DNA of 64,000 nucleotides. Origin: Raillietiella orientalis (Eukaryota). Location: contig JAYWIR010000001.1 in the NCBI GenBank assembly GCA_036172245.1, positions 1 to 64,000 on the forward strand. The letters run 5' to 3'. The position numbers and the translations under genes were made by a program. Under the pieces are notes generated by a model. The model saw only the letters and a list, made by a program, of their open reading frames with translations, had not been told where the DNA came from and did no database searches. Positions 131-39,500 of this stretch are shown here, one piece after another; the stretch's first letter is position 1, and every line of letters begins with the position of its first letter.

Positions 131-2380
131 CTTCAATGACGGGGGAAAGGGAAGCCGGGGGGAGGATGCGGCGCCCGGAGCCCTTGCGGTCGCAGTCGAT
201 TTGCGTGAAGCTTTCGATTGCGTCGACCAGGAGCTCCTCCTGGAGCTCCTGGAACGCTTGGGATTTCCTGCCGTCTTCCTGGCGTACCTGCGCTCCTGCT
301 GACGCTTCGCGCTAATTAACATCAATTTCAGCGGCCGGTACGTGTACGGCGTGCCGGTTCGTCGCGGCATTCGGCAGGGTGACAGCCTGAGCCCCCTCCT
401 CTTCAGCATCTACTTTGAGTTGGTGCTGAGAGCATACAGGGAGACTTTGGCAACCCTGCCGAGCTCTTGTCCCGGCACGCCTGCCGTGTCGGCCTATGCC
501 GACGACCTTCTGCTTCTGCTTCCCGTGTCCACCCCGGCATCGGCGCTCGAAGATTTCTTTGAGTTGCTGAACCGGGGGACGGGCTTCGAGGTAAACAGGG
601 CGAAGTCGTCAATCATTTCTACGGACTCGTCGCGGGCAGGACGGTCGGACTGGATCCGCTTGGGGATCCCCACAAGCGGGTACTTCAAGTACCTGGGCGT
701 TCCGTTGGGGGACTTCTGCGCTGCAGAAGCCTGGTCCGACCGTCTCCAAAAGGTGGAGTTGGCAATCGGCCCGTTCCGGGATGGCAAGTTTTACTTGCAG
801 GAACGGGCCGCGGTGTGGAACGCTTTTGCGGCCCCCCTCCTCCGCCCCCTACTTTTTGTATGCCCCATACCTCCCCAAATTCGTCAAAGGACAAGGGGCC
901 TCATCAGAAAAGCCCTCTGGGGCAATCGGAGGCCCCGCGTCCGTCTTAAAGACTTGTGCGCTCCACGCAGGGACGGTGGACTTGGTCTCCTGACGCTGGA
1001 GCGCATGGAGCGACAGCTCCAATTCCGTAAACTTGCCCTTGTGGCAAAGTACTGGACCGCACCCTGGTGTGCACCTTCACGACTCCTGGCTCACAGGGCA
1101 ACCGGCTGCCATAAATTGACCTCAATCCTAGTAGCCAACGACCGCAGCCTTAACCACTGTGGTTTTCAGCTGCGGGAATTGGTTGCCCTGTTTAGAGACA
1201 ATCCGTGGATCTCCTGCATCCCAGCGGACTGGACTACCTGGCTCCAGGAATCCGTTTCCGCATGGGCTAAAATCAACGGCTCCAGCGATGAGGACTTCTC
1301 CTGCCTCCGTAGAGGCAGGTACGCTGGTCAGCCACTGCAGGAGATCGTCAGCAACCCACGGAAGCTTCTGTGGGCCTCCTTTACCCCCTTGCCCCAGTGC
1401 TGCCCTCCCTCAGGGAAGTTCTGGACAGCCAGCAGGAGGCATCGTGGGAAGTGTCCTGCCTCATCGGAGGCAGGAAAAAATTATTGAAGGCGTGGACGTC
1501 CCGGGAACTAGCGGACGCTAGTACCCCGAGTGTCCCGCCGAATGGACTTTCACGCTGGGGCGCGCTGCTCGAAGTACCTCCGGAGGAGGTGAAGTGGCCC
1601 CCGGCGTCGTGGGATAACGGACCCTTCCTCTGCAGTGGCAGGAGACGGCGTTGCTTCTGCTCCATTGGGGACTGTTAAGCAGAGCGCGCTTGTCTCACTG
1701 GACACACGGGAGTGTGGATGCTAATTGCCCAGACTGTGGGGAAAGAGAAACCTTTCCTCACTTAATCATTGAGTGCGTTGCCCTACGCGATATGTGGGAC
1801 CGACTCTCGTCGATCTTGAACATTCCGCAGGGCGACCCGAAGAACATTTTTCGACTCCTGATGCGGGACGCCTTGCCAGCTTCCGGGTGTGTAGCAGTGC
1901 TCTGATGCATACGCGGAATACTGGACAAGTGGACCGCGTCAAGGAGAGGACATGCCAGTCGGAATGCCATCCACTGGGCAACCATCTCCTTGGAGAAGGC
2001 CTGCCGTTGGCGCCGACTTGGAAAACACTTACAGGCACTCGTCCGCATCCGTGACCGGATGCAGAGGCCTCCTCACGGCGTACCGTGATTCCTTCCCTTC
2101 CCTCCCCCCCCGAAGAACATTGCCCCCCCCAGGCGTTTTCTTTTTTTTGTTTATTTTTGGTTTTCCCCGCCCCTTCGCCAGTGTGGAGGACCTTATCGGC
2201 CTTAGGGTCGGGAAGGACAAGTGTCTCAAGACAGTCGGGCCATATGTCCTGACTGAAAAACAAGAACAACCACAACAACAACAAAAAAAAAAACAAATCA
2301 TGACTTTATTATGAAATTTTATTTTGTATTTTGGAAAATTTTAATAATAAAAGCCCCGGCTCACCCGGGTGAAAAACCCC
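130..2380 (+). mobile_element. 5'-truncated A-group L1/Tx1-like element: RT, C-terminal Cys/His domain and 3' UTR, disrupted
   Basis: AVDLREAFD, RGIRQGDSLSPLLF, AYADD, FKYLGVP (ORFs 21..302, 342..1487); CPDCGERETFPHLIIEC (1651..1905); stop at 300 and frameshifts; ends in AATAAA-hairpin at 2346-2371. Confidence 0.92.
2256..2297 (+). repeat. (CAA)n / A-rich simple repeat inside the element's 3' UTR
   Basis: aaaaacaagaacaaccacaacaacaacaaaaaaaaaaacaaa. Confidence 0.8.
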
Positions 2381-2382
2381 CC

Positions 2383-2716
2383 AAGGGAGAAATCGCGGTG
2401 GGGAAGCCAATTAAAAAGGGGCGCGAGGGTTCTACGTGTGCCGTGCCCGCCCTCGCTGCCGTACTGGGAAACACCTCTCCAGGCCAGGAACCAAGAAATA
2501 TCCGAAGAACCTCGGTAGGAAAGGTAGGTGAGCAAGAAGATCGACACAGGGCGAAGACTTCCAGCTCCAACCCGCTGTCCCTCCCCAAACCGGCAAACCC
2601 CAATCCAACGTAGGGGTCTCTGCGGCGGCTACGAAACACGTAGCAAGCCGCGGCGCGCCGCGCAAAAACACGCTGCATGCAGCCGCCCCTTCACCGACTC
2701 GACAAGTTTTCCCAGG
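2383..2716 (+). pseudogene. C-terminal remnant of an A-group ORF1
   Basis: KGEIAVGKPIKKGREGS... matches the tail of zinc-knuckle ORF1 37143..38009(-). Confidence 0.75.
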
Positions 2717-2843
2717 TCCCACAAGGGGTGGGGTAAATTTATTTTTCAAAATTTTTCTACAAAAACATTCACACTATAGTCTCATTCATACCATTAGCAC
2801 TGCTTTTACCACTCTGAAGACCATGAGTTCACAAGTTCTGCAC

Positions 2844-5800
2844 TCATGGTGGGTTTCCTGGTGTTTGGTCCCGGGCGTCGTTTTCTATCCTCTTCAGGAT
2901 GAATCGGTACGTCCAGGCTTGGATTTTTCCACAGTTCCTAATGCCGATTTCCCTCTTCAGGAGCCCTTGCAGGATCTCCATCGGTGGTGCGGCTCTCCTG
3001 GCTTTCCTCATTTTCCACCACCGAACAAGTATGGCGGTGATGAAGAGGGCAATGGTCGTCCTCACCATGGGATTGTAACAGGGAACATTACCATCCCCCT
3101 GAAACATCCCGGTGAGGATCTCCATTACGGATCTGTTCGTAAGTCCGATGATCCTTTTCAGGATCAGCCAATCATGCAGCAATGTCGGACACGTCAAGAC
3201 GTGAAGTCTCGTGTCGTTGTCTCCACATGCCGTGCAGTCTCGATCTTCCCGTCTTCCGGTATAGTACTGCAATCGGGACCCACTCTGGATTCCTCCATGA
3301 TGAAACATCAGGAGGTCATCCTGGGTGCCCGGCGGAAGGTCACTTCTCCAGAGCATTGTGCCGATCGCTAGCAGGTTGATCCGGTCACTTCCGTAGCGAT
3401 CGGCGGCTTCCTGGAGGGCACTGATGTCACAATCTTCTTCCGGAATTATTCTTCGGAGGTTTGTTTTGATTACCCTGGACCACGCGAAGTCGTTGTGGTT
3501 AAGCCACACCTCGCGGGTCATGTGGGTAAACCTTCCTAACATCATCTCTATATACCTGAGTATACGAGTGTGATGTAGGTACCCTTCTCGCCTCCACTCC
3601 TGGATTTGTTGTAGGGTAACTCTGGACCGCTGGTGGATCCAGCTTCTCGTGTCCGGCGGGACAGGAAGCATCCAAGGGATCACCAGGATGGACTCGTCCT
3701 GCCAGAGTTCCCTGCTTCTTGGCACGATCTTCATCTTGTGCTTTCGCACAAGCCGCTGTTTTCTTCTCCAGGTTGGGTCGATGGTGATCCATTCCCCTGC
3801 TCGGCCTAGCAGCGCAGTCATCAGGCCTTTCGAGTTGTTCAGCAACAACGCGTAGGCCCTGTGCGCCGCATACGGCCAGTCATCCCAGTAAGTGGCAATG
3901 TCCAGGATGTGTCGCGTATCCATGATTTCCATGGAATGTGCAAGCGACTTCATCCCGGAACCGCCTTCTTCCCTGGGACGACACAGGGGTTTCAGTCTTA
4001 CTCTTGGGCGATAGTGGTTCCAGAGTATTTTTCTTTGCAGCTTGTCGAACTCCCTAGTAGTGTCCTTGTTCATCCTCGCGAAGGCCGCCCCGAAGAGCAC
4101 TTTCGGAAGGAGTACTCCGTTCCATATGTTGGCCTTTCGCTTCATCCCAAGGTCCGTTCGGGTGTACTTGGCTGCTTCCTTGGCCGTTTTCCCTAGGATC
4201 TCGGTCCACAATAGCTTCGACGCAGAGTCGTCGCCAATGTAGACACCCAGGTACTTGGCCGTGTCCACCGTTCGGAATCCTCTTCCCGCTAGAGCGGAGA
4301 GATCGAGGATTCCAACGAGCAAGAGCTGGCTTTTCTGGACGTTGATCTTTAGACCCAGGCCTTGATCCATCAGGTCTACCACATCCAGAAACGCTCGTTG
4401 ATTTCTCTCTCCCTCGATAAAGAAGAGTAGATCATCAGCGTATGCCAGATGGGTAAGACGCTGGCCATCGATGGCTATGCCTTGTAGTCGTCCGCTCTTC
4501 TCGATAAAGGACGACAACGCCTCCATGTAGATGACGAACAGCAACGGACTTTGCGAGTCGCCCTGCCGGACTCCCCGCTCCATCCGGATTGCTGCCGTCT
4601 CCTGGCGGTTGATTTTGATTCGGCAGTACTGGTTCTAAAGTACCACCCTCACGGAGTTGCTTAAGTGTTCCGGAAGGCCTAGCTTCTCCAGAACCTTCAG
4701 CAGCATCCCATGGTCGATGGAGTCGAGAGCCTTCTCCATGTCAGTGAACACCAGCACCAGGTTCTCGCCGACGTATCGGCTGAGTCCAACGGTGGCCTGG
4801 GCACACTTGACATTGTCCGACATGTGACGTCCAGGGACTGCACACGTTTGGACCGGAGAGATGAGCTTCGACATGACCCTGCCTAAGCGGTTGGACCAGA
4901 TCTTCGCCAACCACTTGGCATCGGAGTTCAGGATTGAGATTGGCCTCCATAGAGCGATCTGGGTTGGGTCGGCTCCTTTCGGCAACAAGCTCATCCTACT
5001 CTCGTAGAAGGACTCAGGTAGTCTGCCTTCTTCACGGATGCAGAGGTTCAACTGGTGGGACAAGCGCAGGAAGGCATGCAGGCACCGCTGATAGTGCGTG
5101 ATGGGTACACTGTCAGGGCCCGCCGCCACATCCTTGCGCAGTTGTCCAAAAGCAGTCTTCACCTCGTCTTCGGAGAATTCCTCCTCCAATCTGTTCCGCT
5201 GGAGGTCGTCGGTCCTCTTCTCGAGATAGCTCAGAAAGGCTTGTTGACTAGACCGACAGAGATGTTGTCGCCTGAAGTGTTTCGTGTAATGCCTGTGAAA
5301 GGCTTCCACGATATCCTCGGACGACTGTCGCTCTTGATCTTCGTACTGGATGCAGAAGATATCTGTTGCCAGATTTCTCTTCTCCAGCACGCCGACTTCC
5401 CCTTTTATGTTGTTGAAGACGTACCGACTCTCGTACTGATCGAAGTACTTTGAGAGTGAGCGATCTTGGATGTTCAGCTCTCGGTACGCCTCCTGCCTCA
5501 AGCGCCTATCCCCGAATTGCATATTTGCAAACAGGTGTATCCTGTGTTCCAAGCTGTCCCAGTCGGCGACTCTTCTGATTTTTGTGGTTCTCAGAATCGT
5601 CTCCAGGACCTCCAGATGTCCAGGATGTGTCTCGAACCAGGAGGGCATGCTGATGAGCGCCGCCCTGGTGCCTTGCCTCCGCCGAGGATTCTCCGTTCTT
5701 AGGTAAAACCGCACCAACGGGAGATCGGACAGAGTGGTCAATGTGTCTCGAAAACCCTGAATGCGATTCCCTAGTTCGGTGCTGTGGAGGACGGGATCGA

Positions 5801-6362
5801 TCGGCTTGTGACTTGCAGTTCGCCACACCAGTCCGAACTCTTCGGATAGCCGCCGATACGCCGTCCTTCCTCTGGCGTCTTGGTAATGAGTGATCTCATC
5901 CAATATGTTGAGATCGCCAGCAACAATCACGACGTCCTTGGGGGCGACCTTTTCACGGAGTGCTGCATGCAGCGCCTCCGCACAACGATGTTTCAGCCTG
6001 TGCGGCCCGTACACGTTCATCAGGATGAGGTGAACAGTAGCGGACCAGGCCAGTCGCACGCCGATGATTCGTCCGGGTTGGGGACAGAACACTTCCAGAA
6101 TAGTGGGGGCCATGTGGTTCTTGATTAGGACCGCCACACCCTGCGTGTTCCGTTCTCCCTCGCTGACGAACATCTGCCCGTTGAATCGCCGTTCCATTCG
6201 CTGACCAATCTCGAGATCCATCTTGTGGGTCTCCTGCAGGCACACTATGTCTTGTTGTGCGATGGTTCGCACAATCCTTTTTCTTTTTCCCTGGTCGACC
6301 ACACCGTTTACATTCCAGGAGGCGATGTTCAGCCTCTTGGCGGTCGATAGGCAAGAGGCCAT
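2844..6362 (-). pseudogene. Family B ORF2 (APE + RT), ~1170 codons, one in-frame TAG at 4635-4637
   Basis: ASWNVNG, CLQETH, AGDLN, WRPISILNSDAK, RGVRQGDSQSPLLF, AYADD, KYLGV, CTACGDNDTRLHVLTC. ORFs 4635..6467 and 2844..4583 are in the same frame. Confidence 0.92.
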
Positions 6363-6375
6363 AAAAGGGGAAGAC

Positions 6376-8124
6376 CTATTTCCTGGCCTTCCTGAGCTTC
6401 TTCTGTCTGGGAGAGCGTGCTCTTCCAGACGATGAAGAAGCAGCGGGCTTCTCGCTGCCGGCGTCACTCTCCGTTCCGGTGAGGTCGGTTACTTCCGCCT
6501 CCTCCGTAGAGTGTTCGGCCCGCCCGATCAATTTTCGAGATAGCGCCTCTATCTCGACCTTTGCGCAGAAGTTCGCCTTTACGTCGAGAAGCTGTTCTTC
6601 TAGCATCTCGCCCTCGGTGACCTCCACAACCTGGTTCACCTTTTCCTGTGCATTGCAGATCTTCTGCAAGATTTTCTCTTGCTGAGGCCCGCTTTGCACC
6701 TCCATCGCTTCCTCCGCTAGTGTTGCCAACTCCTCCGTGGACTGCAGGGCCTCCTGCGACACTTTAGTGGCTTCCTGGTTTCCTTCTTTCGCGCCTTCCT
6801 GCGCTAACTCCATCTTTCCGCCTTCCTGCGCTGCTCCTTCTAGGATAAGAGGGGTTTCTTGCTCCTTGACGAGCATCCTCCTCTTTCCTTTCTTTCTTTC
6901 CTCAATGAAGCCGTCCGTCGATACCTGCACGGCTTCCTTCACCTTCTTCGGCCTTCCTGCCAACTTCTGAGGCTGTTCGGCCTCCTTGATGTTTCTCTCT
7001 CTCACGAGAGAGAGACCTCGAATCCTTCTGCAGTTTTCAAACTCCGGACAGCTCCATTGAGCATGTCCGTGCTTCTTGCAGAAGGAGCACACCTCCGGTT
7101 GCGGGCAGTTTCGGACTTGATGTCCAACTTTGCCGCAGCGGAAGCAACGGCATGTTGGGCAAGTGCCGGCCCTGTGGCCGAACTGCTTGCACTCGGTGCA
7201 GAATACCGGTTGTTGCCGGTGGCGCACGTTCACTCCCTGGGATTGTTCGTCAATAAACGCCAACCCAGGTATAACAGCTCCCTCCTTCATCTTCATCTTG
7301 GCGATCATGTCGCCAGAAAATATGTTTCCAGAGAAGTTCTGGAAATCAAGGTCCAGAACTTCCCCAAACTGCTCCAAGTAATTCCACACCGCTAGTTGCG
7401 GTGTGAGGATGGAGATGCCGTTTAAAAAGACGGTTGTGTATGGCATCTCGTTAATACCACAAACCATCCTTCCTTGAATATTGATCCCCTTCTGGATCAA
7501 TCTCTCTCTAATGTTTTAACAGTCTGTAAATACTGTGAAACCGTTGTTACTGGGTATAATCGCCTCTATTCGATCAAAATTGGTGTCTGTTTTTTCCAGG
7601 GACAGATACACCTCCCTGATGTTGTTGAATTTTATTAGCCCAGTCTTGGAAATAATGGGCTTTACATTCGGCCTTAGCTCGAAGATCGGCCGATCTACCT
7701 TTTGTACTTTTCCACATAGCGGCTTTCCAAATTTCCTTGGCGGGTGGACACTCGCTTGTCCTGCCGCCACCGACGCATACGAAATAAGCTGCGCCGCCGT
7801 AGCCGAAGAAGATGGCGTCACGCCCTGTACCGCGTGGACGCCTGCGGATCCCGCCTGGAACGCCGCCGCCGCGGGCGCAGCTCTCGACGTTGCCACCGTT
7901 GCCGCCGCCTGCGGCACCCTCGGCATCGCAGCCGCAGGCGCGACCTTCCCCGCCGCGGGCACGATCCTCGGCGTCGCCGCCGCGGGCACGACCTTTACCG
8001 TCGTCGCCGCGGGCACGACCCTTGGCATCGCAGCCGCCGGCGCAGCAAAGCCCGGCGCAGGCGCGATCCTCGGCATGCCTGCCGCCGCCTCGCCGTTGCC
8101 GCACGTTACCTCCATGGCTTCCAT
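6376..8124 (-). pseudogene. Family B ORF1 (gag-like, Ala/Pro-rich N-terminus, 3 CCHC knuckles), one stop at 7516-7518
   Basis: CTECKQFGHRAGTC, CFRCGKVGHQVRNC, CSFCKKHGHAQWSC; the GAA codon of the other copy is TAA here. Confidence 0.9.
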
Positions 8125-8330
8125 TAGGGACGACGGCCTCTCCACTCCTCTACCAGGTGCCTGCATCCTGGCAGCTGTTCTTGCTGCTCGGGACGACTAG
8201 AGGTCTTCCGCCGTGATCTCCTCGGCGCTTCTTTTGTAGCTGTATGAGCAGATCCTATGCAGCACACTCTAGTCCGCACTCACTTTCTTCTGGACACTTT
8301 CCCTCTTCGGGCACACTCGATCACAATTAG

Positions 8331-11300
8331 CTAATTAACCGTCGTCGTGCGCGCAATTGAATGAACCTCGAAGCAAGGTCATCGACTCGGTAAGAGAGAA
8401 GCAATCTCCCGACAGCCAAGAAGGTGACTCCGCTGCCTCCTTTTAAAGGCGTGGCGGAAGCGACGCACCTAGATGCGGCAGCGAAAACTCCGGAGGTTTC
8501 CTAGACGAAAGTCGCGGAAGCGTCCGAAAATCGTGACGGAGAATGAAAGGTTGTGGAGAGGAGAAAAGAAAAATCTCCCAAGAAGGCTTCGCAACCTCCA
8601 TCCGCGAGCTCTTTGAAAGCAAAGAACAGCCGCGTGAACAAGAGAACACGCGCGGAGGGTTCTTCTGCCCAGGAAAAAGCCAGCGCCGTCAACGCGTGCA
8701 AGTCCGCCCTGTGACCGCCGAGAAGACGTTTCCGGTGCGATCGGAGGGATGCAAACGCACGTCGATCGTGCGAGCATCAGACTCCGTAAAGGAGTCCGAT
8801 AACGCCGCTGAACGACGAGTTACTCGCGCGGGAGCGAGCGCCCGCAGGGCTGAAGTCCTGAGGCGTGACACACTCGCCGCGGAACGGCGAGTGCTCACCC
8901 CGGAATCCACAGGTTCTGCACCCGGGGAGGAGCACTCGATTACGCGCTGAACGGTGGAGGCCGGTGGCGACCGCGCCCTCCAGCCCGTCGTGCTGCTTAC
9001 TGCCCGCTCGCCGGGTGAGGCGAGCACCACGGCCTCGCTTTCCCAGCCGTGATGAGGGCAATCGCGTCTTCTCGTCGTGTTGCCGTGGCGTGCTGGAACG
9101 TCAACGGTCTCCAACACGACGTGAAGAGGCGACCAGTAGCCAACGCTCTGCGCGCCTTCGACTTGACGCTCCTGCAGGAGATTCACAGCATCTCCGGAGA
9201 CCAGGCTGCCGAAATCAAACGGCGTGCGGGCAGAACGCTACATTATATGTGCGGCGTCGCTTTCCTCGTACGAGGAAATTTGGCGGGAGCGGTGCGCAGC
9301 GTTCGTTTCGACACGGAAGGCCGAGTGGGACAGCTTGTACTCAAGTGGTCCGACTCGATCGACCTTGTCGTAACCAACGTGTACGCGCCGAGCGGTGCTG
9401 GACGATGGGCCGAAAGGATTGAGTTCTTCGGTACTCTTCAAAGCCAATGGCTCACTCGATCTCACCCTACTGTGGCCCATCTCATTGCGGGGGACTTTAA
9501 CGTCCACCTGCTTTCCGAGAATAGATCCCACAAAAGGGAAAAGTTGCTAGCGGAAGAGATGTGCGCGTCCGTTCACGCGTGCAACTTTTTCGCTAACGAC
9601 TCTGTTATGGCGACATCACCGGACCATGTATCCCTCGATGAACACTTGCTCTCTCGAGTGGGTCGGAGCGGTCCCATGCCGTCCGTGCTTTCAGACCACA
9701 ACAGACTCGAGTTCGAGTTGCTCCCGCCAGGCAAGGGGCCTCCAAACTGTTTTTGGAGGATGCCGGCAGACTGGCTAAGCCACCCGGAGGCGGCTGAGCA
9801 TCTTCGCCAGTACCTCCGCGGCTTCCCCATAAGTGAGCTCGAGGACTGGGACGATCTGAAAAGATCGGTCCGCTGCCGGTTTCTCTTGCACCAGCTTCCG
9901 CGCGGCTTCGGAGAGGGTGTAGCCAACAGCAGAGATTTTCTGCAGGCTCGCTCCTACTCCAGGCGCGCGGACGTTGGTCGATTAATCGAGTACAAGGCCA
10001 AGGCTGAGCGCCAGGTCTGGCAGTCTGGAGCGACAGTTCTGCTCGACGACCAGGACCGGGAATGCTCGGCTCCAGCCGACGTGCGGCGGATAGTCAGGCG
10101 CTATTACTCTTCTCTGTATGCAGAGGCACCGACGGAACGCAGTCTCTTCGAGCTGCTTCTGCCGATTGATGCACCTGTTGTAGACGAGGAGGAACGTGCG
10201 CGTCTCGATGAGCCCTTCACGGCAGAGGAAATTTCTTCGGCCATCTCGGGGCTCAAGAGACGAAAAGCGCCAGGCGAAGATGGGCTCCCCGCGGAATTCT
10301 TTCAGTGTTTTGCGGCGGAGCTCATCCCCCTGGTGCTTCAACTCTCGTCGCTGATGCGAGACGCGGGCGATATCCCCGCCTCGTTTTGCTCAGCGAAGGT
10401 GCGTCTCCTGCCGAAAGGCGGAGATTTGCGCCAACTGAACAATTGGCGTCCGATCACATTAGTGAATTCGGACGTCAAGTTGTTCTCAAAACTTTGGGTG
10501 GCGCGGATAGGGAGGATCGCGGAGTCTTTGGTAAGTCCGGAGCAGACCTACGCTGTCCGTAGGCGGTCCATGGACGTGAACCTCTTATTCATATGCACAT
10601 GGCTGCAATTGCAGTATCGTGTGGCGATGGATCGTCGTGCGGAAGCGACGCTTTCGATCTCGCACCGACGGAGGCGCGGGTCGCCAAGGGAAACCACAGG
10701 AGCCTTGGCGGTTGCAGTCGATTTGCACAAAGCTTTTGATTGCATGAACCAAAAGCTTCTACTTGAGCTTTTGGAACGTGTGGGCCTCCCGGCATCCCTA
10801 TTGGCGTACTTGCGCTCCTGCTGGCGCCACGCGATTACATCCATTGTTTTCAGTGGCTGTCGCGTGTACGGCGTGCCGGTTAAACGTGGAATTATGTAGG
10901 GCGATAGCTTAAGCCCGCTGCTCTTTAGCATCTATTTTGATATGGTGCTGGAGGCTTACAGGCTGACGCTATCTAACCTGCCGAGCTCCTGTGCAGGTAC
11001 GCCGGCCGTGGCAGCCTATGCCGACGACCTGCTTCTCCTGTTGCCCATGTCCACCCCAGCAGCGTCGCTTGAAGATTTCTTTGAGTTGATCCGTCACGGT
11101 GCGGGCGTGAGCGTCAACAGGAGCAAGTGCATGGTTGTTCCGGTTGGAGCGACGTGGGAGGGGCAGTCCGACTAGATCCGCCTGGGGATCCCCACTAGCA
11201 GGTTCCTAAGGTAACTTCGCGTGCCGTTGGGCGACTTCTGCGTCTCAGAAGCGTGGTCGGACTGCCTTCGGAAGGCAGAGCGTGCACTTGGCCCGTTTTC

Positions 11301-12944
11301 AGGAGGCGAGTTCGTCTTGCCGGAACGGGCCTGCATCTGGAACACCTTCGTTGCCCCCCTACTCCGCCCCCTGTTTTTTGTTTGTCCACCCCCCCAGGAA
11401 GTCAAAGTCTGGGCGCAGCGCCTTCTACGCAAAGCGTTGTGGGGCGCTGCAAGATCCCGTGTTAGACTTAAAGACTTGGTGGCGCCGCGTCAGGATGCAG
11501 GCTTGGGCATCCTAGACTTAAACAGCATCGAACTGCAGGTGCAGTTTCGCATGCTGCGGCTCTGTGCCAAGCTGTGGTGTACGCCGTGGTGCTTACCCGC
11601 ACGCCTTATACTGAGGCGCTGCACGGGAAGCGAGGGACTGCTTTCGTTGCTACCCCACTTTCGGCACACCAGAATAGGGTTTGGCTTCCCGCTGAGGCAG
11701 CTGTCCTCACTGCTGGAAGCCCAATGTTGGATCTCCTGCCGCCCCATGAACATTAATGCATGGCGGCAGGAATCTTTTTCATCGTGGGCAGCTTCCGAAG
11801 GAACGCGCCCGGAAGATCTTCGACGTCTGCGACTTCTCCTCAGTCATCAAATGGACGAAGTCATGCAGGACAAGAAGTTGTCGGATCGTCTTGCCGCCAC
11901 ACCACTCGCTTCAGCGCTGTCTGCCCTCAGGGCAAGCAACGAGGATTGCCTACCGGCGGAATGGGAGTTCTGCAAAATAGCGGGAGTCAGTAAGCTCCTC
12001 GGCTGCTGGACGACAAAGGAGCTGGTGGAAACTGCCACTCCTCGTAATCGGGCGAAGGGCCTGCTTCGCTGAAGCGAACGTTTATGTGTGCCCCCCGGAG
12101 AGATAGTGGTTCCCTTCGTTTGTTTGGACAGCTCCGTGTTCCCCCTAAAGTGGAAACAAGATGCGCTGCTCTTTTTACATTGTGCATTACACTGTAATAG
12201 GCAGCGAAGCATCGTTTCCGGGGGAGCTGCTTTGCCAAACTGTTAAAGGTGCGGAGAGATCGAGTCTTTTCCGCACCTTTTGCTGGACTGCGGTGACCTC
12301 CGGGAACTGTGGCGAAGGCTCACTTCGGGCATCATGCCACAAGGAGGCACTGCCATTGATGTGCTGCGGCGCTTCTTCAGCAGAAATGGACTTTCGGTTG
12401 GCGCGATTGTCGCAACCATGTGTTGCGCTCGCGCCATCGTGAAGGCCCGCTACGCCCTGGAGTTGTCAGTGCAGCGAAGGGAGGCTCACCTGTTTGCAGC
12501 TTAAATCATGGAGAAGGCTTCAAGGTGGTCTCATCTTCGTGACAAGGTGAATGAGGACATCACCGGCATACATCGCCGGTTTACAGACCTTTGAGAACGG
12601 CGTAATCCGGTGACCCCTGCGACCTCTCGCCCACTCATACCTTGTCCCCGTTCGCTCGGTAAAATTTCCGGTGCCCATGCTTTTATCCCCGTGTCTTCCA
12701 GAGCGATCCCAAACACCCTTATCCCGTCCTCCTTATTCATTGTTTTTATTTTATTTTGGTTTCTTTGTGTTCCCTGCCCCCCCACACCGTTCACAAAACT
12801 GTTACTCTGGCCTGCGTGCCAGCAATATTCTCTTCATTCTTGTTCAGTCGTCGGTTGGGAGTTTGGTTCCCAACTGGTTTATTTTGTATAATTGCTTTTT
12901 TTGGTTATGTTATATGGAATAAACGCCCCGGCGTGACCGGGTGA
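8331..12944 (+). mobile_element. A-group L1/Tx1-like element: ORF1 3' part, full-span disrupted ORF2 (ATG 9052), 3' UTR
   Basis: ACWNVNG, LLQEIH, AGDFN, SDH, APGEDG, WRPITLVNSDVK, DLHKAFD, YADD; stops at 10897, 11173, 12070; AATAAA-hairpin 12918-12944. Confidence 0.92.
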
Positions 12945-14813
12945 GAAATCTCTTGCGCTTGTTCTGCAGAGATCACGTGGATCTCCTGCAGCACCGCAAG
13001 GTCGTAGGACTCCAGAAGGGCGGCCATGTCTCGTCTCCTGCCGCCCTGCATTACTGCTGGGAAGATTAAGGTGTGGGGGAGCCCGCCTCTTGCGAGGCCG
13101 GCGGGATGTCCATGGGGGTTTCGGCCTTCTCAGGCACCTGAGGCACCTGTTCGGCCTCCACCCCCTCCATCCCCTCCGTGTCCGTGCGTGGGAGTCTCTC
13201 GGGCGACGGGTCCCGAGAGTTTCCCACGCTCATGGCACCCTCGCTTGCGAAAGCCATCTCTTCCCCTTCGACGGGGGAGACGAGCTTCCTCGGCTTTGTG
13301 GACTTACGTCCAGCCTTCTTGCGGGGTGCCGTGGAAACAGAGGCTGCGCTTCCGGCCTCCACCTCGGGGTCGGAAGTGGGGGACTCTTGAGGGGAGGCCG
13401 GACGCCTTACGGCCTTCTTGCCAGCCTTGGAGATTCTGGCTGCAACGAGGCAGCCAGTTCCTCCGCGGCTCGCGCGAAGGCTACGTCATCGATGGTGGTG
13501 TCGATGACGGACGCCGCCGCCGGCTCGCTCCCCTCGCTGTTGGCAGAGTCAACAGAGGGGAGGTCGTCGGTAGCGGCGAGTTCTATCTGGCAGCGTTCGG
13601 CAACATCGAGAACGCGTTCGACGACGACGCTGCACTCTTTAATTATCGCGCTACCCTGCTCTTTCTTCTTCTGTTGGTAGGTGATTTTTTTTTCCATCCT
13701 CCTCTCCTTCTTTGATTTTTTGGCCGTTGCCACCTGCCACCCAGGCTCCTGGCTAGTTCCCTCGACTTGTTCGGCGTTGTTCGCCGGGGTCTCGGGTGCG
13801 GCCTGGGCCTTGGGCGCGGGTGGCACAGCCTTCTCGGCAGCTTTCGCCACCAGCCTTTTCTGCAGAAGCCGGGCGCGTTTTTTAAGGTTTCTCTTGGAAA
13901 CCACCCGCACTGCTGCTTTTGGGCACACCTCCCTTGTGTGACCCATTGCGCCGCATACTTGGCACTGCACGTTGGGACACCTCTTTTTGAGGTGGCTCGA
14001 CGTATTGCAGAAGCCGCAGTATTTCGGCTTCCCCACATACCAGAGGTCGACGGTTTCGCTTTCGACCACCAGTTTGTGGGGAAGAGTGCAGCCCTCCCGA
14101 ACGGTCAGGCGCGCAGCCGTGAGGCCGTGTTGCAGCCCCGTGTAGTCCTCGAAAGGACTAACTTTCGTCCACTGCGCGTGGACCGTTCCGAACTGTTCCA
14201 AAGCGGCGCGAACCTGTTCTTTGCGCATTCGCGCGGTTACGCCTAACAGGTGGACCACCATGCTGCGGTCCGCCGTAGTGGGGAGGAGCCTGCGCGTCCC
14301 CATCACAACGGGGGTTTTAAGCAGTCGTTGGGCCAGCTCTGCATGTTTGCAGATGACCTCAACGTACTGACCCCCGCTGCGGATGGTCATAGCGCTGAGC
14401 TCCTCCTCTTTCACATCGAGAGCGCGCATGCCCTTCGAGAAGGCTCGCGCGCTCTCTAAAGAATATAAATTGCCTACCTTGTAGAACAATGAGGGGTTGT
14501 ACCCCTCCTCTACATAGGCCGACAATTCCGCCGCGGCTGCAGGCGATGGCGCCGACACAACGGCGCTCCACGCCCGCGCTGCAGCGGGGACCGATTCTGT
14601 GGGGGCGGATGCCCCCACCTCCATCGCCTCTGGGGGCGACGTTGCCGCCGCCCCCTGGCTCTCCATCGCCTCTGGGGGCGGCGTTGCCGCTGCCCCCTGG
14701 CCATCCCTGGTGGTCGCGTCAGGCATCGCTGCCTGATCGACCACCGAACCACACGACGGGAGACTGCGGGAGACTTCCTGGCACAAGGAGCACCGAGAAA
14801 ACACGTCCGCCCT
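12945..14813 (-). mobile_element. 5' half of an A-group element: 5' UTR, ORF1 (ATG ~14726, frameshift ~13430), start of APE
   Basis: CGFCNTSSHLKKRC and CQVCGAMGHTREVC knuckles; TAATG junction ~13050; YDLAVLQEIHVIS cut off at 12945. Confidence 0.88.
14619..14702. repeat. 42-bp tandem duplication in ORF1 N-terminus
   Basis: ctccatcgcctctgggggcg... at 14619 and 14661; encodes QGAAATPPPEAMES / QGAAATSPPEAMEV. Confidence 0.9.
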
Positions 14814-14814
14814 A

Positions 14815-22310: not shown

Positions 22311-22930
22311 GGGTTTTTTACTCGCTTATGCCTGGGAATTTATCATCGAAGAATTTCCAGATTACAGAATTTTATCATAAAGTCTCGAGGTTCTTTCAGA
22401 CAGCACACGTGGTCCCTCCTATCTGGAAAGTGTATCTTTACCAGCCCTTGAAACCCTTAGGTCTTTTTCGCATGCGAAGTGGGAGAGGGGGGGAAAGCAA
22501 AACAAGACAGAAACACGAGGAGAAAACAATGTTTCACTGAAAGCGGATGGAAGGGAAACGATCACAGATCGTCGGCAGGGGCTCTCTGCATCCAACGTTG
22601 GAAGCCGACAACTGCCCGTCGGAATGACCTTAGCCAGCGCCCCATCGGCAAACCTAAACGCAGATGGCTGCCCAGGGTATGACATTCCGGATCTTCTGAA
22701 CCCTCGTGTACGCAGTGCATCTGTCCAGGATTCCGCGTATGCAACAGATAACTGCTGCACAACCGGTTGCTGGCAAAGAATCGCTTCAGGAGCCATAGGA
22801 AAATGATCTTTGGGTCGTCCATCGACGACAGTCGATTCCACACGGGACGTTGGGCAACACACTCGATGATTACGTGCGGGAAAAATTCCAGAACGCCGCA
22901 TCCTGCACAGTTACTATCTACACTTCCACG
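22311..22930 (-). mobile_element. Decayed 3' end of an A-group element related to 1700-2380
   Basis: GSVDSNCAGCGVLEFFPHVIIEC; 3' UTR similar to 2150-2380; decayed terminus gataaattcccaggcataagcgagtaaaaaaccc on the minus strand. Confidence 0.75.
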
Positions 22931-23640: not shown

Positions 23641-23879
23641 TGTTCCTTTGTGCGTGTACTGTACGTCTTTGTAAAAGTGTATTTTCAAATTAACGCCGCG
23701 GCCTAATCCGAGTGAAAATCGAGCGCAAATGCCCATCTGGATCCGGGAAGCAACAGCAAAAGATCGTCTGCATAGGCCGACAAGGAAGATGTGCCAGGAC
23801 ACGCTCTCGACAAGGTCCAGAAAGTCAACGCCTGGAGCAAGGCTACGGGAGGACCACGCGACCAGGATGCCATCCAGCC

Positions 23880-25630: not shown

Positions 25631-25634
25631 TTCA

Positions 25635-26277: not shown

Positions 26278-26834
26278 AAGGCTGGCAAGAAGGCCGTCAG
26301 GCGTCCGGTTTCCCCTCAGGAGTCGGCCACTTCCGACCCCAAAGGTGAAGGCTGGAAACACAGCATCCATCTCCGCGGCACCCCGCAAAAAGGCAGGACG
26401 AAAGTCCACAATGCCCCGGAAGATCGTCTCCCCCGACGAAGGGGAAGAGATGGCTTCCGGTAGCGAGGGTGCCATGAGCGTGGGAAACTCCCGGGACCCG
26501 TCGCCCGAGAGAATTTCACGCTCGGACACGGAGGGGATAGAGGGGATGGAGGCCGAACAGGTACCCCAGGTGCCTGCAGAGGCCTCCGTCCTCGTTCCGA
26601 TGGTCCTCGTACCGATGGACCTTTCCTACATCTGCCCCGCGGCAGGTGCCGCTACGCCACTTTCCCAGCCATAATGCCGGGAATCGCCTCTCGCCATCAT
26701 CTGCTGATCACCTGTTGGAACGGGCTAAGCGACGACGGCAAGAGGCGTGACGTGGCCGCCACCCTGGCATCCTTCGACCTGGTGCTGCTGCAGGAGATCC
26801 ACGTGATCTCCGCAGATCAAGACCTGGAGATTTC
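26278..26834 (+). pseudogene. ORF1 C-terminus, TAATG junction (26672-26676) and APE N-terminus of an A-group element
   Basis: ORF 26345..26674 resembles 13066..13362(-); ORF 26674.. reads TCWNG...FDLVLLQEIHVIS. Confidence 0.85.
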
Positions 26835-29800
26835 TCACCCGGTCACGCCGGGGCGTTTATTCCATATAACATAACCAAAAAACCAATTATACAAAATGAA
26901 CCAGTTGGGAACCAAACTCCCAACCGACGACTGAACAAGAATGAAGAGAATATTGCTGGCACGCAGGCCAGAGTAACAGTTTTGCGAACGGTGTGGGGGG
27001 GCGGGGAACACAAAGAAACCAAAATAAAATAAAAACAATGAATAAGGAGGACGGGATAAGGGTCTTTGGGATCGCTCTGGAAGACACGGGGATAAAAGCA
27101 TGGGCACCGGAAATTTTTCCGAGCGAACGGGGACGGGGCATGGGTGGGCGAGAGGTCTCAGGGGTCACCGGATTACCCTTTCTCAAAGGTGTGTAAACCG
27201 GCGATGTATGCCGGTGATGTCCTCATTCACCTTGTCACGAAGATGAGACCACCTTGAAGCCTTCTCCATGATTTAAGCTGCAAGCAGGTGAGCCTCCCTT
27301 CGCTGCGCTGACAACTCCAGGGCGTAGCGGGCCTTCACGATAGCGCGAACGCAACACATGGTTGCGACAATCGCGCCAACCGAAAGTCCATTTCTGCTGG
27401 AGAAGCGCCGCAGCACATCAATGGCAGTGCCTCCCTGCGGCAGGATGGCTGAAATCAGCCTTCGCCACAGTTCACGGAGGTCACCGCAGTCCAGCAAAAG
27501 GTGCGGAAAAGACTCGATCTCTCCGCACCTTTAACAGTTTGGCAAAGCAGCTCCCCCGGAAACGATGCTTCGCTGCCTATTACAGTGTAATGCACAATGT
27601 AAAAAGAGCAGCGCATCTTGTTTCCACTTTAGGGGGAACACGGAGCTGTCCAAACAAACGGGGGGAACCACTATCTCTCCGGGGGGCACACTTAAATGTT
27701 CGCTCCACCGAAGCAGGCCCTTCGCCCGATTACGAGGAGTGGCAGTTTCCACCAGCTCCTTTGTCGTCCAGCAGCCGAGGAGCTTACTGACTCCCGCTAT
27801 TTTGCAGGAGAACTCCCATTCCGCCGGTAGGCAACTGTCGTCGCTTGCTCTGAGAACAGACAGCGCTGCGGCGACTGGTGTGGCGGCCAGGAGATCCGAC
27901 TTCTTCTTGTGCTGCATGATTTCGTCCATTGGATGACTGAGGAGAAGTCGCAGGCGCCGAAGATCTTCCTGGCGCGTTCCTTCGGAAGCTGCCCAAGATG
28001 GAAAAGATTCCTGCGCCATGCATTAATGTTCATGCGGCGGCAGGAGATCCAACATTGGACTTCCAGCAGTGAGGACAGCTGCCTCAGCGGGAAGCCAAAC
28101 CCTATTCTGGTGTGCCGAAAGTGGGGCAGCAACGAAAGCAGTCCCTCGCTTCCCGTGCAGCGCCTTAGTATAAGTCGTGCGGGTAAGCACCACGGCGTAC
28201 ACCACAGCTTGGCACAGAGCCGCAGCATTCGAAACTGCACCTGCAGCTCGATGCTTTTTAAGTCTAGGATGCCCAAGCCTGCATCCTGACGCAACGCCAC
28301 CAAGTCTTTAAGTCTAACACGGGATCTTGCAGCGCCCCACAACGCTTTGCGTAGAAGGCGCTGCGCCCAGACTTTGACTTCCTGGGGGGGTGGACAAACA
28401 AAAAACCGGGGGAGGAGGGGAAGGGCAACGAAGGTGTTTCTGATGCTGGCCCGTTCCAGCAAGACGAACTCGCCTCCTGAGAACAGGCCAAGTGCACGCT
28501 CTGCCTTCCGAAGGCAGTCCGACCACGCTTCTGAGACGCAGAAGTCGCCCAACGGCACGCGAAGTTACCTTAGGAACCTGCTAGTGGGGATCCCCAGGCG
28601 GATCTAGTCGGACTGCCCCTCCCACGTCGCTCCAACCGCAACAACCATGCACTTTCTCCTGTTGACGCTCACGCCCGCACCGTGACGGATCAACTCAAAG
28701 AAATCTTCAAGCGACGCTGCTGGGGTGGACATGGGCAACAGGAGAAGCAGGTCGTCGGCATAGGCTGCCACGGCCGGCGTACCTGGACAGGAGCTCGGCA
28801 GGTTGGATAGCGTCAGCCTGTAAGCCTCCAGCACCATATCAAAATAGATGCTAAAGAGCAGCGGGCTTAAGCTATCGCCCTACATAATTCCACGTTTAAC
28901 CGGCACGCCGTACACGCGACAGCCACTGAAAACAATGGATGTAATCGCGTGGCGCCAGCAGGAGCGCAAGTACGCCAATAGGGATGCCGGGAGGCCCACA
29001 CGTTCCAAGAGCTCAAGAAGAAGCTTTTGGTTCACGCAATCGAAAGCTTTGTGCAAATCGACTGCAACCGCCAAGGCTCCCGTGGTTTCCCTTGGCGACC
29101 CGCGCCTCCGTCGGTGCGAGATCGAAAGCGTCGCTTCCGCAAGACGATCCATCGCCACACGATACTGCAATTGCAGCCATGTGCGGATGAATAAGAGGTT
29201 CACGTCCATGGACCGCCCAGGGACAGCGTAGGTCTGCTCCGGACTTACCAAAGACTCCGCGATCCTCCTTATCCGCGCCACCCAAAGTTTTGAGAACAAC
29301 TTGACGTCCGAATTCACTAATGTGATCGGACGCCAATTGTTCAGTTGGCGCAAATCTCCGCCTTTCGGCCGGAGACGCACCTTCGCTGAGCGAAACGAGG
29401 CGGGGATATCGCCCGCGTCTCGCATCAGCGACGAGAGTTGAAGCACCAGGGGGATGAGCTCCGCCGCAAAACACTGAAAGAATTCCGCGGGGAGCCCATC
29501 TTCGCCTGGCGCTTTTCGTCTCTTGAGCCCCGAGATGGCCGAAGAAATTTCCTCTGCCGTGAAGGGCTCATGGAGACGCGCACGATCCTCCTCGTCTACA
29601 ACAGGTGCATCAATCAGCAGAAGCAGCTCGGAGAGACTGCGTTCCGTTGGTGCCTCTGCATACAGAGAAGAGTAATAGCGCCTGACTATCCGCCGCACGT
29701 CGGCTGGAGCCGAGCTTTCCCGGTCCTGGTCGTCGAGCAGAACTGTCGCTCCAGACTGCCAGACCTGGCGCTCGGCCTTGGCCTTGTACTCGGATAATCG

Positions 29801-31440: not shown

Positions 31441-31653
31441 TAATCAGTTAATTGTGATCGCGTGTGCCCGGAGAGGGAAAGTGTCCAGAGGAAAGTGAGT
31501 GTGGACTAGAGTGTGCTGCATAGGATCTGCTCATACAGCTACAAAAGAAGCGCCGAGGAGATCACGGCGGAAGACCTCTAGTCGTCCCGAGCAGCAAGAC
31601 CAGCTGCCAGGATGCAGGCACCTAGAGGAGGAGTGTAGAGGCCGTCGTGCCCC

Positions 31654-33402: not shown

Positions 33403-33415
33403 GTCTTCCCCTTTT

Positions 33416-36400: not shown

Positions 36401-36912
36401 TGCTGTGGAGAAGTGACCTTCCGCCGGGCACCCAGGATGACCTCCTGATGTTTCATCATGGAGGAATCCAGAGTGGGTCCCGATTGCAGTACTATACCGG
36501 AAGACGGGAAGATCGAGACTGCACGGCATGTGGAGACAACGACACGAGACTTCACGTCTTGACGTGTCCCACATTGCTGCATGATTGGCTGATCCTGAAA
36601 AGGATCATCGGACTTACGAACAGATCCGTAATGGAGATCCTCGCCGGGATGTTTCAGGGGGATGGTAATGTTCCCTGTTACAATCCCATGGTGAGGACGA
36701 CCATTGCCCTCTTCATCACCGCCATACTTGTTCGGTGGTGGAAAATGAGGAAAGCCAGGAGAGCCGCACCACCGATGGAGATCCTACAAGGGCTCCTGAA
36801 GAGAGAAATCGGCATTAGGAACTGTGGGAAAATCCAAGCCTGGACGTACCGATTTATCCTGAAGAGGATAGAAGACGACGCCCGGGACCAAACAGCAGGA
36901 AACCCACCATGA
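33416..36912 (+). pseudogene. Family B ORF2, disrupted
   Basis: 20-bp deletion between AGAC repeats near 33530 removes IVCLQE; stops 34119 and 35121; frameshift ~35790. Confidence 0.9.
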
Positions 36913-37038
36913 GTGCAGAACTTGTGAACTCATGGTCTTCAGAGTGGTAAAAGCTGTGCAAATGGTATGAATGAGACTATAGTGTGAATGTTTTTGTAGA
37001 AAAATTTTGAAAAATAAATTTACCCCACCCCTTGTGGG

Positions 37039-37790
37039 ACCTGGGGAAACTTGCCGAGTCGGTGAAGGGGCGGCTGCATGCAGCGTGTTTTTGCGCGGCG
37101 CGCCGCGGCTTGCTACGTGTTTCGTAGCCGCCGCAGAGACCCCTACGTTGGATTGGGGTTTGCCGGTTTGGGGAGGGACAGCGGGTTGGAGCTGGAAGTC
37201 TTCGCCCTGTGTCGATCTTCTTGCTCACCTACCTTTCCTACCGAGGTTCTTCGGATATTTCTTGGTTCCTGGCCTGGAGAGGTGTTTCCCAGTACGGCAG
37301 CGAGGGCGGGCACGGCACGCGTAGAACCCTCGCGCCCCTTTTTAATTGGCTTCCCCGCCGCGATTTCTCCCTTTTGGGGCGTTGCGGGCGGGGACGCCTT
37401 TTGTATTGCCTCATATTGCTTGGCTCTTTTGCCAAGACTCCGCGGACACTGCTTTTTGTTGGGGGCAGCGGCCTTTTGTGCGTTCATGTCCTGAACGCGA
37501 CGAACTTCCGCTGCTGCCCTTTCCTTTGCAAGGAGCGGGCACTTTTTGATTTCGTGCCCGGAATCTTTGCAATAGCGGCATCTTGGAGAGGGGCACTCTT
37601 TAATTCGGTGCCCATCCTTGCCGCACTGCTCGCACGCGCGAGTCTGGCCTATGAACCACAGGTGAACGACCGTGCCGTTCACCTGCAGCTGCTCGGGCAC
37701 AACACGCCTGTTCGCAACGGTGATCCGCGCAGAGGCTTGTCCAATGTGGACAGAGGGGAAATCCTTTAGAGGATTTGGCCTCCTCCACAG
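37039..37790 (-). pseudogene. A-group ORF1 3' half with two zinc knuckles
   Basis: CEQCGKDGHRIKEC and CRYCKDSGHEIKKC in ORF 37143..38009. Confidence 0.85.
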
Positions 37791-39404
37791 AGGTCCACCC
37801 AATATCTGCGCGTTCCGCTGGGGAACATCAGCCCAGTGGAAGTGTGGTCGGACTGCCTTCGGAAGGCTACGAGTGCGCTGAGCCCGTTCCAGCATGGCAG
37901 GTTCCTCCTGTCGGAGCGGGCCGCGATATGGAACACCTTCGTGGCCCCCCTCTTGCGCCCCCTGTTTTTTGTTTGCCCGCGCCCCTACTCGGCGAAGCTC
38001 CAGGCGCACGGCTTGTTGAGGAACGCTCTGTGGGGTCCTGCGAGGTCCAGGATCCGCCTGAAAGACTTGGCAGCTCCGCGTCGGGATGCTGGCTTAGGCA
38101 TCCTGACGCTGGAGAGAATCGAGCTGCAGGTGCAGCTTCGGATGTTGGCCCTGTGCGCCATCCTTTGGTCCACTCCGTGGTGCGCTCCTTCGCGACTGCT
38201 CCTGCGGCGCTGCACCGGCAGCGAAGGACTTCTGTCGCTGCGTCCGCATACGGAGCGCCCCACGACAAGTTTCGGTTTCCCTTTGAAACCGCTTTACCGG
38301 CTCCTGGCAGCCCAGGAATGGATCTCCTGCCGCCCAACGAACTTTCAAGCCTGGCGGTACGAACCGTTGCATGGCTGGGCAAAGCACCAGGATGTTTCCC
38401 TCCTGGAACTCCGTTGCGTTCACCTCTCCCCGTACTGCACGGTGGATGAAGTCTGCAGCAGCCAGGAGAAGTGGACTCGCCTGGCCCTCATTCCCCTCGC
38501 CGACGCACTGTCAGCCCTCAGGGCAAGAGATGACAGCTGCGAACCGGCGAGATGGGAGGTCGCGTGCACCATTGCAGGAACAACACGACCTATTGGCGGC
38601 TGGAGGAATTGCGAGCTGGCAGACGCCGCCACGCCTCGCCACATCTCGGAGGGACTCCTTCGGTGGAGTGAACACTTAAGTGTGCCCCCCGAAGAACTTG
38701 TGGTCCCTCCCTCCTGTTTGAACACTTCTGTGTTCCCCCTTTCGTAGAAGCAGGACGTCATCATGCTGGTGCATTGGGGTTTTCACTCCAACCAGCGGAC
38801 GAATTGTGTTTCCGGGGGAGCTGTCTCCCCAAACTGTAAGCGGTACGGGGAAGTGGAAACGCTCCCGCACCTGCTCCTGGACTGCGGTGCCCTTCTAGGA
38901 CTTTGGCGGAGGCTGACCTCAGCTCTCCTGCACCAGGGGGACATTGCGAGGGACTTGATGCGCCGTTTCTTCACGCCAGGCGGCCTGTCCTTAGGTGCTG
39001 TCAACGCAACGGTCTGTTGCACCCACGACATCGACAAGGCCCACCGACAGTTGGAGAAGCTGGCCATCGTTCGTCAGCTCACCGATTAGCCAGCACAAGC
39101 ATGTCGTTGGCTCACGAGTGAGCATATCTGCCACAGGTCGTAAGGAGAGAGATCGCCGGCATCCATCGCCGGTTTTCAAAGGAAGGAACGGACTCACCAA
39201 AGACCCCTGTCCCCTGGCCTCCGTAGTTTTATTTTTATTTCTTATAGTAGTGTACTTGTGGTCCCCTCCCTCCCGTTCCGGACTTTCGGCATACCGACCT
39301 TCGTGTCGGGGATCCCAACCCCTTCGTATCTTGTTTTCCCCTTTGTCCAGGAACTCTGTTCCCGGATAGTTTTTAATAAACGCCCCGGCGCACCCGGGTG
39401 ATAA
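37790..39404 (+). mobile_element. 5'-truncated A-group element (late RT to 3' end)
   Basis: ORF 37836..38747; ETLPHLLLDC; AATAAA-hairpin 39375-39400. Confidence 0.9.
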
Positions 39405-39500
39405 ACGGCCGTCCTGCGGAGATCCGCTCGATCTCTTGCGCTATTTTCTATAATTGTTTCAAAATCTTGTGTGGAATAAACGGCCGGCGTGACCAGGTGA
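39405..39500 (+). mobile_element. Remnant 3' terminus related to 12870-12944
   Basis: tattttctataattg...ggaataaacggccggcgtgaccaggtga vs tattttgtataattg...ggaataaacgccccggcgtgaccgggtga. Confidence 0.75.

Follow-up and report, generated by a model that had tools for sequence, protein, structure and literature searches.

A poly(A)-free hairpin terminus and subfamily-linked insertion targets in an L1/Tx1-type LINE lineage of Raillietiella orientalis

The first 64,000 nucleotides of contig JAYWIR010000001.1 of Raillietiella orientalis (assembly GCA_036172245.1), called the window below and forming the start of contig C1 of this analysis, carry long interspersed elements (LINEs) of a lineage, here named A, that end in AATAAA-N3-CCCGG-N4-6-CCGGG-TG-NN-AA without poly(A), the two NN bases being typical of the subfamily. 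The end is exact, the copies bear the hallmarks of target-primed reverse transcription (TPRT), and the insertion targets are linked to the subfamily, with fixed codons of sibling LINEs among them. With respect to mechanism, the sequences point, with moderate confidence, to a hairpin that places the start of reverse transcription at position +5/+6 after the stem, on an RNA probably polyadenylated there, while the protein of open reading frame (ORF) 2 would set the target.

The terminus and the element that carries it

In the window the intact motif occurs in six exact copies versus none in 100 dinucleotide shuffles. The genome-wide motif search proposed in an earlier note, which had been drawn from the letters of the window, returned 2,702 matches to AATAAA-N2-4-CCCGG-N4-7-CCGGG versus 0 for the reversed control, the 210-Mb genome being covered in this as in all genome-wide searches reported here. 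Without a stem requirement, AATAAA-N18-TGNNAA gives 5,034 matches versus 839 in the control, and thus approximately 4,200 ends with a 5-nt loop. The sample analysed further comprises 273 termini, from 220 loci (designated by L numbers) and the window; it represents less than 10% of all ends and is weighted to contig C1 and two loop types.

The exactness of the end is read from its junction with the target. Across 88 loci, the bases after the stem are T at +1 (88/88), G at +2 (85/88), A at +5 (86/88) and A at +6 (85/88), and target site duplications (TSDs) of 10-17 bp begin at +5/+6 in 58 of 75 cases (+3, 3; +4, 2; +5, 19; +6, 39; +7, 4; +8, 5; +9, 3). A wide scan from -6 to +16 finds this start in 25/38 cases, while 1,760 swapped-flank controls produced 31 chance TSDs of at least 11 bp, none of them at +5/+6. 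The TSD starts therefore put the true end at TG-NN-AA; the layout of AATAAA, three nucleotides, stem-loop and TG given in the earlier note stands, but the end lies 4 nt beyond that TG, and neither the exact +6 end nor the targeting described below was part of that note. Among 70 junctions with a TSD of at least 11 bp, 61 are flush, 5 are otherwise different and 4 show extra A only, as would be expected if poly(A) can adjoin the tail. A run of at least 7 A after hairpin-TG is confined to 9 distinct loci in the genome (18 overlapping matches), at one of which the A run flanks the insert on both sides; the lack of poly(A) noticed in the window thus extends to the genome, and tandem-repeat tails were not found at the termini. 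In some families the sixth tail base is target-derived or microhomologous (TGGCAT, TGTCAA). An origin of the tail TGNNAA from the target is ruled out, as empty sites lack it.

The motif belongs to the element upstream, as the earlier note had assumed. The 273 termini are preceded by an ORF2 C-terminus (219), a linked 3′ untranslated region (UTR; 50) or a short TSD-bounded insert (1), with 3 unexplained; as 270/273 have an element upstream and empty target alleles contain neither motif nor tail, the possibility of a target site or a separate repeat is ruled out. Conversely, the motif is present with up to 3 mismatches at 68/90 ORF2 ends that had not prompted the choice of their locus, a set that retains some copies so chosen and in which many misses are interrupted by other inserts. 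Inserts measure 8-5,460 nt, and the full end is kept with merely 8-48 nt upstream of AATAAA. At L037 a 38-nt insertion, little besides the terminus, is bordered by an 11-bp TSD on either side.

AATAAA is nearly invariant and preceded by UGUA and U-rich elements, with TGTA within 40 nt upstream in 113/273 termini versus 58 expected. A stem-loop is predicted in all five intact A copies that were folded, its 5-bp GC stem being extendable up to 7 bp with one bulge (Y-R-(bulge)-CCCGG/CCGGG-U-G). The loop varies (40 sequences, 4-6 nt), as does the bulge, and the pairs flanking the stem are mostly kept (G-U/A-U/G-C in 149/158; C-G/U-G in 137/158).

The terminus belongs to a deep-branching L1/Tx1-type LINE lineage. 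In profile searches of the proteins of A and of a second lineage, B, ORF2 matched the N-terminal APE endonuclease (EN) PF03372 (A, E 9.7e-07 and 3.9e-08; B, E 2.3e-18) and the reverse transcriptase (RT) PF00078, RNase H gave no match, and ORF1 of both lineages carries the CCHC knuckles of PF00098; a C-terminal CxxC..H..C is readable in the translations, with Pfam zf-RVT unmatched at E 0.1. The best PDB match of the RT is human L1 ORF2 (E 3.9e-39), versus 1.3e-16 for R2. Relatives in the databases are EN-RT-zf-RVT proteins of mostly 21-37% identity in one set of comparisons and mostly 25-38% in another, besides two closer metagenome proteins at 62% (P0139) and 65%. Together with 5′ truncation, the 75 TSDs (10-17 bp) are hallmarks of TPRT. 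RT identity among 31 A copies has a minimum of 45% and a median of 64%, and the hairpin is common to the subfamilies of all these RTs; the ORF2s of A and B share 26.5% identity.

The RT phylogeny that the earlier note had suggested was built as a quick IQ-TREE analysis, with references that do not include Xenopus Tx1 and mammalian L1. A is recovered (support 100) and joins B (98) on long branches, tentatively placed outside the fish and amphibian groups and not nested among the named fish or amphibian proteins; the references BAC82621 and Q76IM5 we take to be Tx1-type. Judged by E-value, the best named match is the turtle protein P0140, as annotated in NCBI, with 36% identity across a portion of the RT; it groups with fish-type proteins, not with A. 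The lineage may function like a stringent, target-specific Tx1-type LINE and is a candidate member of the Tx1 clade and of the stringent class.

Insertion targets of the subfamilies

The A subfamilies (c0, c1 and so on) were defined by 3′-UTR grouping, and each has its own TSD start: ACAR/TCAR for c0, CTYCC for c1, CYAKC for c2, ATTTC for c3, ATCTC for c4, CCAGTG for c5, TCGAR for c6 and AGCAR for c8. Many insertions fall on a fixed codon in the ORF2 of sibling elements, here called the home codon. Home codons lie antisense to the insertion at EN residue ~63 (c0), EN 'QEI' (c4), RT 'DAKL' (c2), RT 'KAFD' (c6) and the zinc-finger 'WTRG' (c1), and in sense at EN 'GDFN' (c3), the main home sites being used by one family or close-kin group each. 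The fractions at home are 12/40 for c0, 15/35 for c1, 9/11 for c2 and 3/5 for c6. Independent home flanks number 10/10 for c0 and 14/14 for c1, and form 8 groups among 9 for c2. Overall, 118/273 flanks map to kin elements, with 71 antisense and 26 sense among 97 distinct flanks.

The link between target and subfamily extends to other sites. At non-home sites the target motif is tied to the 3′-UTR subfamily (56 copies, 0/500 permutations), and within-family identity is high at +1 to +5 only (0.65, 0.71, 0.69, 0.49 and 0.53, against comparison values of 0.38, 0.33, 0.29, 0.26 and 0.37; 0/500 permutations). The target motifs also follow the RT and EN trees. One c10 copy combines a c2-type tail with the c2-type target start. 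In 5/6 subfamilies, each represented by one copy, the homologous site within the element itself is unlike the target 5-mer, while that of c6 matches.

For c1 the preference can be put in numbers. At most 28/78 copies occupy the strict home pattern, for which two slightly differing versions were used, and 585 empty sites of this pattern are found genome-wide versus 17 by chance. Set beside ~250,000 CW-CTYCC sites, an estimate extrapolated from 47-64 kb of the window, c1 would prefer its home by an estimated ~150-fold over the short motif. Approximately 24-32 CTYCC sites exist per element, and most of the c1 insertions within kin ORF2 share a single codon. The c1 home site (e.g. window 1696-1714, minus strand) usually shows a 13-bp TSD with both nicks before AGTG; CACT and AGTG on either side of the 13 bp may form a dyad that serves the cleavage of both strands, first and second.

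Occasionally, and only so, a home site is re-used in tandem in A: at L027+2168 and L144-4718 a second copy directly adjoins the tail of an earlier one, and its upstream flank is there no longer the original. Self-priming by a fold-back of the element into its own EN was considered and ruled out, as the antisense flank stems from other subfamilies and TSD-bounded cases exist.

Further observations concern single subfamilies. The c5 home target is a dispersed repeat (flanks L009, L023, L025, L175 and L209), possibly a short interspersed element (SINE) or the leader of a long terminal repeat (LTR) element, with a GGTTCGA(A/T)TC stretch ~90 nt from the insertion site, presumably a B-box-like sequence. 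Full-length 5.9-kb c3 copies lie in sense in a sibling EN (L188, L193, L194, L219, L181, L142/L143) and recur with flanks at 94-97% on different contigs, as a duplicated or co-mobilised composite. The c4 element (window 8400-9050; L198, L207, L211) has an intact-looking ORF2 and an upstream ORF (uORF) of ~137 codons but no ORF1; at three loci it and a B element meet head to head, B with its 5′ end, and the left TSD is unmatched. The c0 ORF2 at L144 is near-intact, with an open frame of 1,140 amino acids whose N-terminus continues beyond the sequence retrieved.

What may set the end and the target

In the mechanism proposed here, the transcript would carry UGUA, a U-rich tract, AAUAAA, the GC hairpin and, last, the short UG-NN-A(A) tail; UGUA, the U-rich tract, AAUAAA and the occasional extra As suggest that the RNA is probably polyadenylated at the tail. 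The ORF2 protein would bind the hairpin as a ruler, so that TPRT begins 5-6 nt 3′ of the stem with or without poly(A), and each generation would regenerate the identical end, a new copy finishing in TG-NN-AA flush with a 10-17 bp TSD, the flush end being what is observed. Target choice would be separate from end recognition and specific to the subfamily, set mainly by its own ORF2 (endonuclease and extended DNA contacts) in cis, and sibling sites may be favoured because sibling copies are abundant and harmless landing sites. Cross-mobilisation between subfamilies, a possibility raised in the earlier note, looks rare given how closely UTR and target are coupled: target and home are tied to the 3′ UTR (0/500), and no SINE carrying the tail was found among the 273 termini.

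Several observations weigh against this mechanism. The earlier note's inference of an L1-type lineage with a hairpin-defined end is supported, the hairpin being common to diverged subfamilies (RT 45-64% identity), but the covariation analysis that the note had suggested came out negative, as no compensatory two-sided change of the core stem occurs beyond CpG-type double changes. Stem variants resemble neutral decay, folding z-scores of the five intact copies versus shuffles reach only -0.01 to -1.4, and the RNA end and any poly(A) are predictions from DNA. A metagenome scan for cross-species covariation found no close relative among 60 loci (long matches at 20-39% identity), and no partner SINE sharing the tail was found among the 273 termini, of which 3 are unexplained and which represent less than 10% of ends. 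On the target side, there is little subfamily-specific signal upstream of the nick, the antisense excess is partly compositional, and duplication inflates home counts (9 copies in 3 flank groups for c3, 8 in 4 for c4). The mechanism also asks much of the endonuclease, which on at least six occasions would have had to evolve long recognition of yet another sibling codon.

In a possible but rather unlikely alternative, RNA reading through the weak end into the 3′ flank anneals to the nicked primer strand, and the target of the master copy is passed on to its subfamily, with the hairpin fixing +6. Long matches at homologous sibling codons would then be used often and 5-nt matches elsewhere rarely. 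The subfamily signal is indeed on the primer side (+1 to +5) with little upstream, tandem insertions follow a first copy's tail despite the replaced upstream flank, and homes lie at arbitrary positions, another one for each subfamily. There is precedent in the accessible parts of two papers, in which read-through 28S flank raises the efficiency of R2Ol (PMC6530143) and a comparable case is made for SART1 (PMC7265360). The extended match beyond +5 is equivocal. An initial 0/300 for c0 and c1 was inflated by home-like sites, and 10 copies were then dropped; c0 then keeps a modest signal, its non-home flanks resembling the home flank when bulges are allowed (0/150), but the match weakens once kin-UTR and ORF sites are left out (gapped, 8 and 4/150; ungapped, 19 and 20/150), and it is absent in c1 (57-115/150). 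Moreover, c1 home flanks are only 64% alike, all four bases (A/T/G/C) occur in c0 at +1, the position on which priming should depend most, the junctions revealed no transduced donor flank, and the extra As at 4/70 junctions suggest poly(A) adjoining the tail. It is possible but rather unlikely that a universal hairpin fixes the RT start while the read-through flank serves as a heritable guide RNA that re-targets the sibling codon of the master copy. Equally tentative is the corollary of a retrotransposon network that knocks out the EN, RT and zinc-finger motifs of siblings while sparing self, and in which a change of flank reprograms the target.

Less probable still is 3′ processing alone, with the hairpin fixing cleavage 22-24 nt past AAUAAA or protecting an unadenylated end, and RT starting at the last base. 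The nearly invariant AATAAA, the UGUA and U-rich elements upstream and the exact end speak for it, and a spacing of 22-24 nt fits the normal cleavage distance. On the other hand, a hairpin between signal and cleavage site reportedly shifts cleavage further downstream, as Wu and Bartel are said to have found in 2017, and polyadenylated RNA copied from its last base would leave long A tails, which exist at only 9 loci. The two roles considered in the earlier note, RT recognition and 3′ processing, are not distinguished by sequence.

It appears very improbable that the palindrome is a signal in DNA or by its sequence only, the homes being the outcome of purifying selection, clustering and the duplication of nested blocks: covariation is absent and duplicated nested units exist (c3, c4, the inverted repeat of the window), but c0, c1 and c2 home flanks are distinct and differ in truncation lengths and TSDs, a single codon dominates c1 insertions despite the many CTYCC sites per element, and the junction keeps a constant position relative to the stem, on the transcribed strand.

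Copies in the window, lineage B and known systems

The first 46 kb of the window consist of nested LINE pieces of the two lineages, stacked on each other. Positions of the termini and of one target are as follows.

2346..2375, plus strand: A terminus AATAAA-AGC-CCCGG-CTCAC-CCGGG-TGAAAA of a 5′-truncated copy with ORF2 remnant 171-2019
12918..12947, plus: c4 terminus, loop CGTGA, tail TGAGAA; ORF2 9052-12582, a short uORF replacing ORF1
12948..14627, minus: target of the 12918 copy, a sibling A element of which the 5′ part with ORF1 and the beginning of EN lies here
16897..16927, plus: A terminus, 6-nt loop GCGTAC that extends the stem to 6 bp, tail TGATAA; 5′-truncated copy 14823-16927
22315..22344, minus: decayed A terminus, 4 mismatches; ORF2 C-terminal remnant 22945-23592 (minus) upstream
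23688..23718, plus: decayed A terminus, 3 mismatches; TCGAG, the c6-type target motif, after the tail TGAAAA
26241..26271, plus: A terminus, tail TGTAAA; short copy ~25629-26271, 96% like the 16897 copy
26832..26861, minus: terminus of the duplicated c4 element; ORF2 27195-30726 (minus)
39375..39404, plus: c0 terminus, loop CGCAC, tail TGATAA; copy 37770-39404
39443..39503, plus: 61-nt c4-type insert, 5′-truncated and decayed (motif 39475-39503, 4 mismatches)
2707..2743, minus: B terminus AATAAA-TTTA-CCCCACCCCTTGTGGG-ACC-TGGG-AAAA, another hairpin, without poly(A); element 2707-8235 (minus)
37013..37049, plus: B terminus of the duplicated copy 31543-37049

The six intact copies (2346, 12918, 16897, 26241 and 39375 on the plus strand, 26861 on the minus strand) and three decayed ones (23688, 39475, 22315) had all been recognised in the earlier note, the intact ones with their loops. 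The 12918 and 26861 copies are both present but are not independent elements, since they sit in an inverted duplication of ~10.5 kb (arms 2364..12901 and 26877-37392, 96-97% identical) in which B and the c4 A element are arranged head to head; the 3′ flanks of the two copies nevertheless agree to 81-87% only. Both interrupt a sibling at the EN 'QEI' codons, the c4 home site, which is antisense in the 12948..14627 (minus) element; for the second copy the sibling is 26674-26831 (plus). The 39375 copy occupies the c0 home site, in EN after 'GR' and antisense, and the 61-nt insert lies at a 'QEI' site 26 bp from it with a degenerate TSD (left copy 39431-39442). The 2346 copy is inserted in sense within an ORF1 remnant, whose empty allele, without tail, is found in the duplicated copy near 37392 (minus).

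B elements too end in a poly(A)-less hairpin of different sequence, which the earlier note did not contain. The B end reads AATAAA-TTTA-CCCCACCCCTTGTGGG-ACT-TGGGG-AAA(A), with AATAAA intact in 16/19 copies fetched and 228 pattern matches versus 1 in the control, which shows the same design as in A with another hairpin. The CCCGG/CCGGG of A and the CCCAC/GTGGG of B are not claimed as compensatory, as B folds best in another register. B occurs in ~5.64-kb head-to-tail arrays on many small contigs, often alongside CTGCCGAGTCGG (e.g. L227:275-5950, with ends at 275 and 5913), and several copies have an open ORF2 of 1,150-1,250 amino acids. At 48259-51367 (plus) lies an old, broken B-like LINE, 36-48% identical to B ORF2, in which no hairpin end is recognisable. 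A host gene region begins at ~52 kb, and an exon at 62083-62400 (minus) encodes MVYLHFPTNYTEEELMLQAKYQKLKRK; its product, without a Pfam match, we assume to be NELF-E-like. Rfam gave 0 matches in the window.

Stringent L1 hairpins and transposon-targeting Tx1 elements are each known, and their combination was not found in the searchable literature, which excludes most subscription papers, Repbase and supplements; the same literature holds no description of the A terminus or of targeting to sibling codons. An exact end free of poly(A), common to the subfamilies of an L1-type lineage from an animal, is relevant to the question of whether the L1 group had strict 3′ recognition from the outset. 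With one constant RNA end and six or more different target specificities, the subfamilies form a natural panel for separating template recognition from target choice. LINEs that aim at conserved codons of their siblings would present a clear case of retrotransposon competition or safe-harbour use and, should the flank be the guide, a compact programmable insertion system.

The comparisons that follow rest on the accessible parts of the cited papers. Tx1-clade LINEs target transposons, Xenopus Tx1 inserting into Tx1D, crocodilian Tx1-Mar into Mariner-N4, and Tx1-8_Crp and Tx1-4_AMi into LTR elements (PMC4494074). A resembles this clade in its APE and RT, a putative C-terminal zinc knuckle, its CCHC ORF1 and its family-specific targets inside repeats, and the home fractions of c0, c1, c2 and c6 exceed the more than 20% of flanks in one repeat by which target specificity is judged there (PMC4494074). 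In contrast to Tx1, its targets are fixed codons of same-lineage sibling LINEs, one per subfamily, its end is a common hairpin plus six bases without poly(A), and its RT lies outside the named fish and amphibian proteins of the quick tree.

Stringent L1-clade LINEs are described from maize and sorghum and from green algae (PMC3747384, PMC5135761), and A shares with them a 3′-terminal hairpin conserved across diverged families. The plant case, however, includes SINE partners and stems with compensatory changes, and the majority of plant L1 families have a poly(A) end, whereas A has a sequence-invariant stem, no SINE found, no poly(A) and an exact junction. Recognition of a 3′ stem-loop, as proposed for A, has its parallel in UnaL2/ZfL2, SART1 and R2 (PMC5135761, PMC7265360, PMC6530143), and for SART1 (PMC7265360) and R2Ol (PMC6530143) it is documented that the end or flank of the RNA anneals to the target; these elements belong to other clades, have tandem-repeat or poly(A) ends or rDNA or telomere targets, and were tested for function. 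The closest parallel to nesting is offered by the Zepp/ZeppL L1 elements of green algae, which insert into their own copies (PMC8226300): nested insertions characterise A and B as well, B forming its ~5.6-kb head-to-tail arrays, but where Zepp enters its own copies, the A subfamilies mostly enter their siblings.

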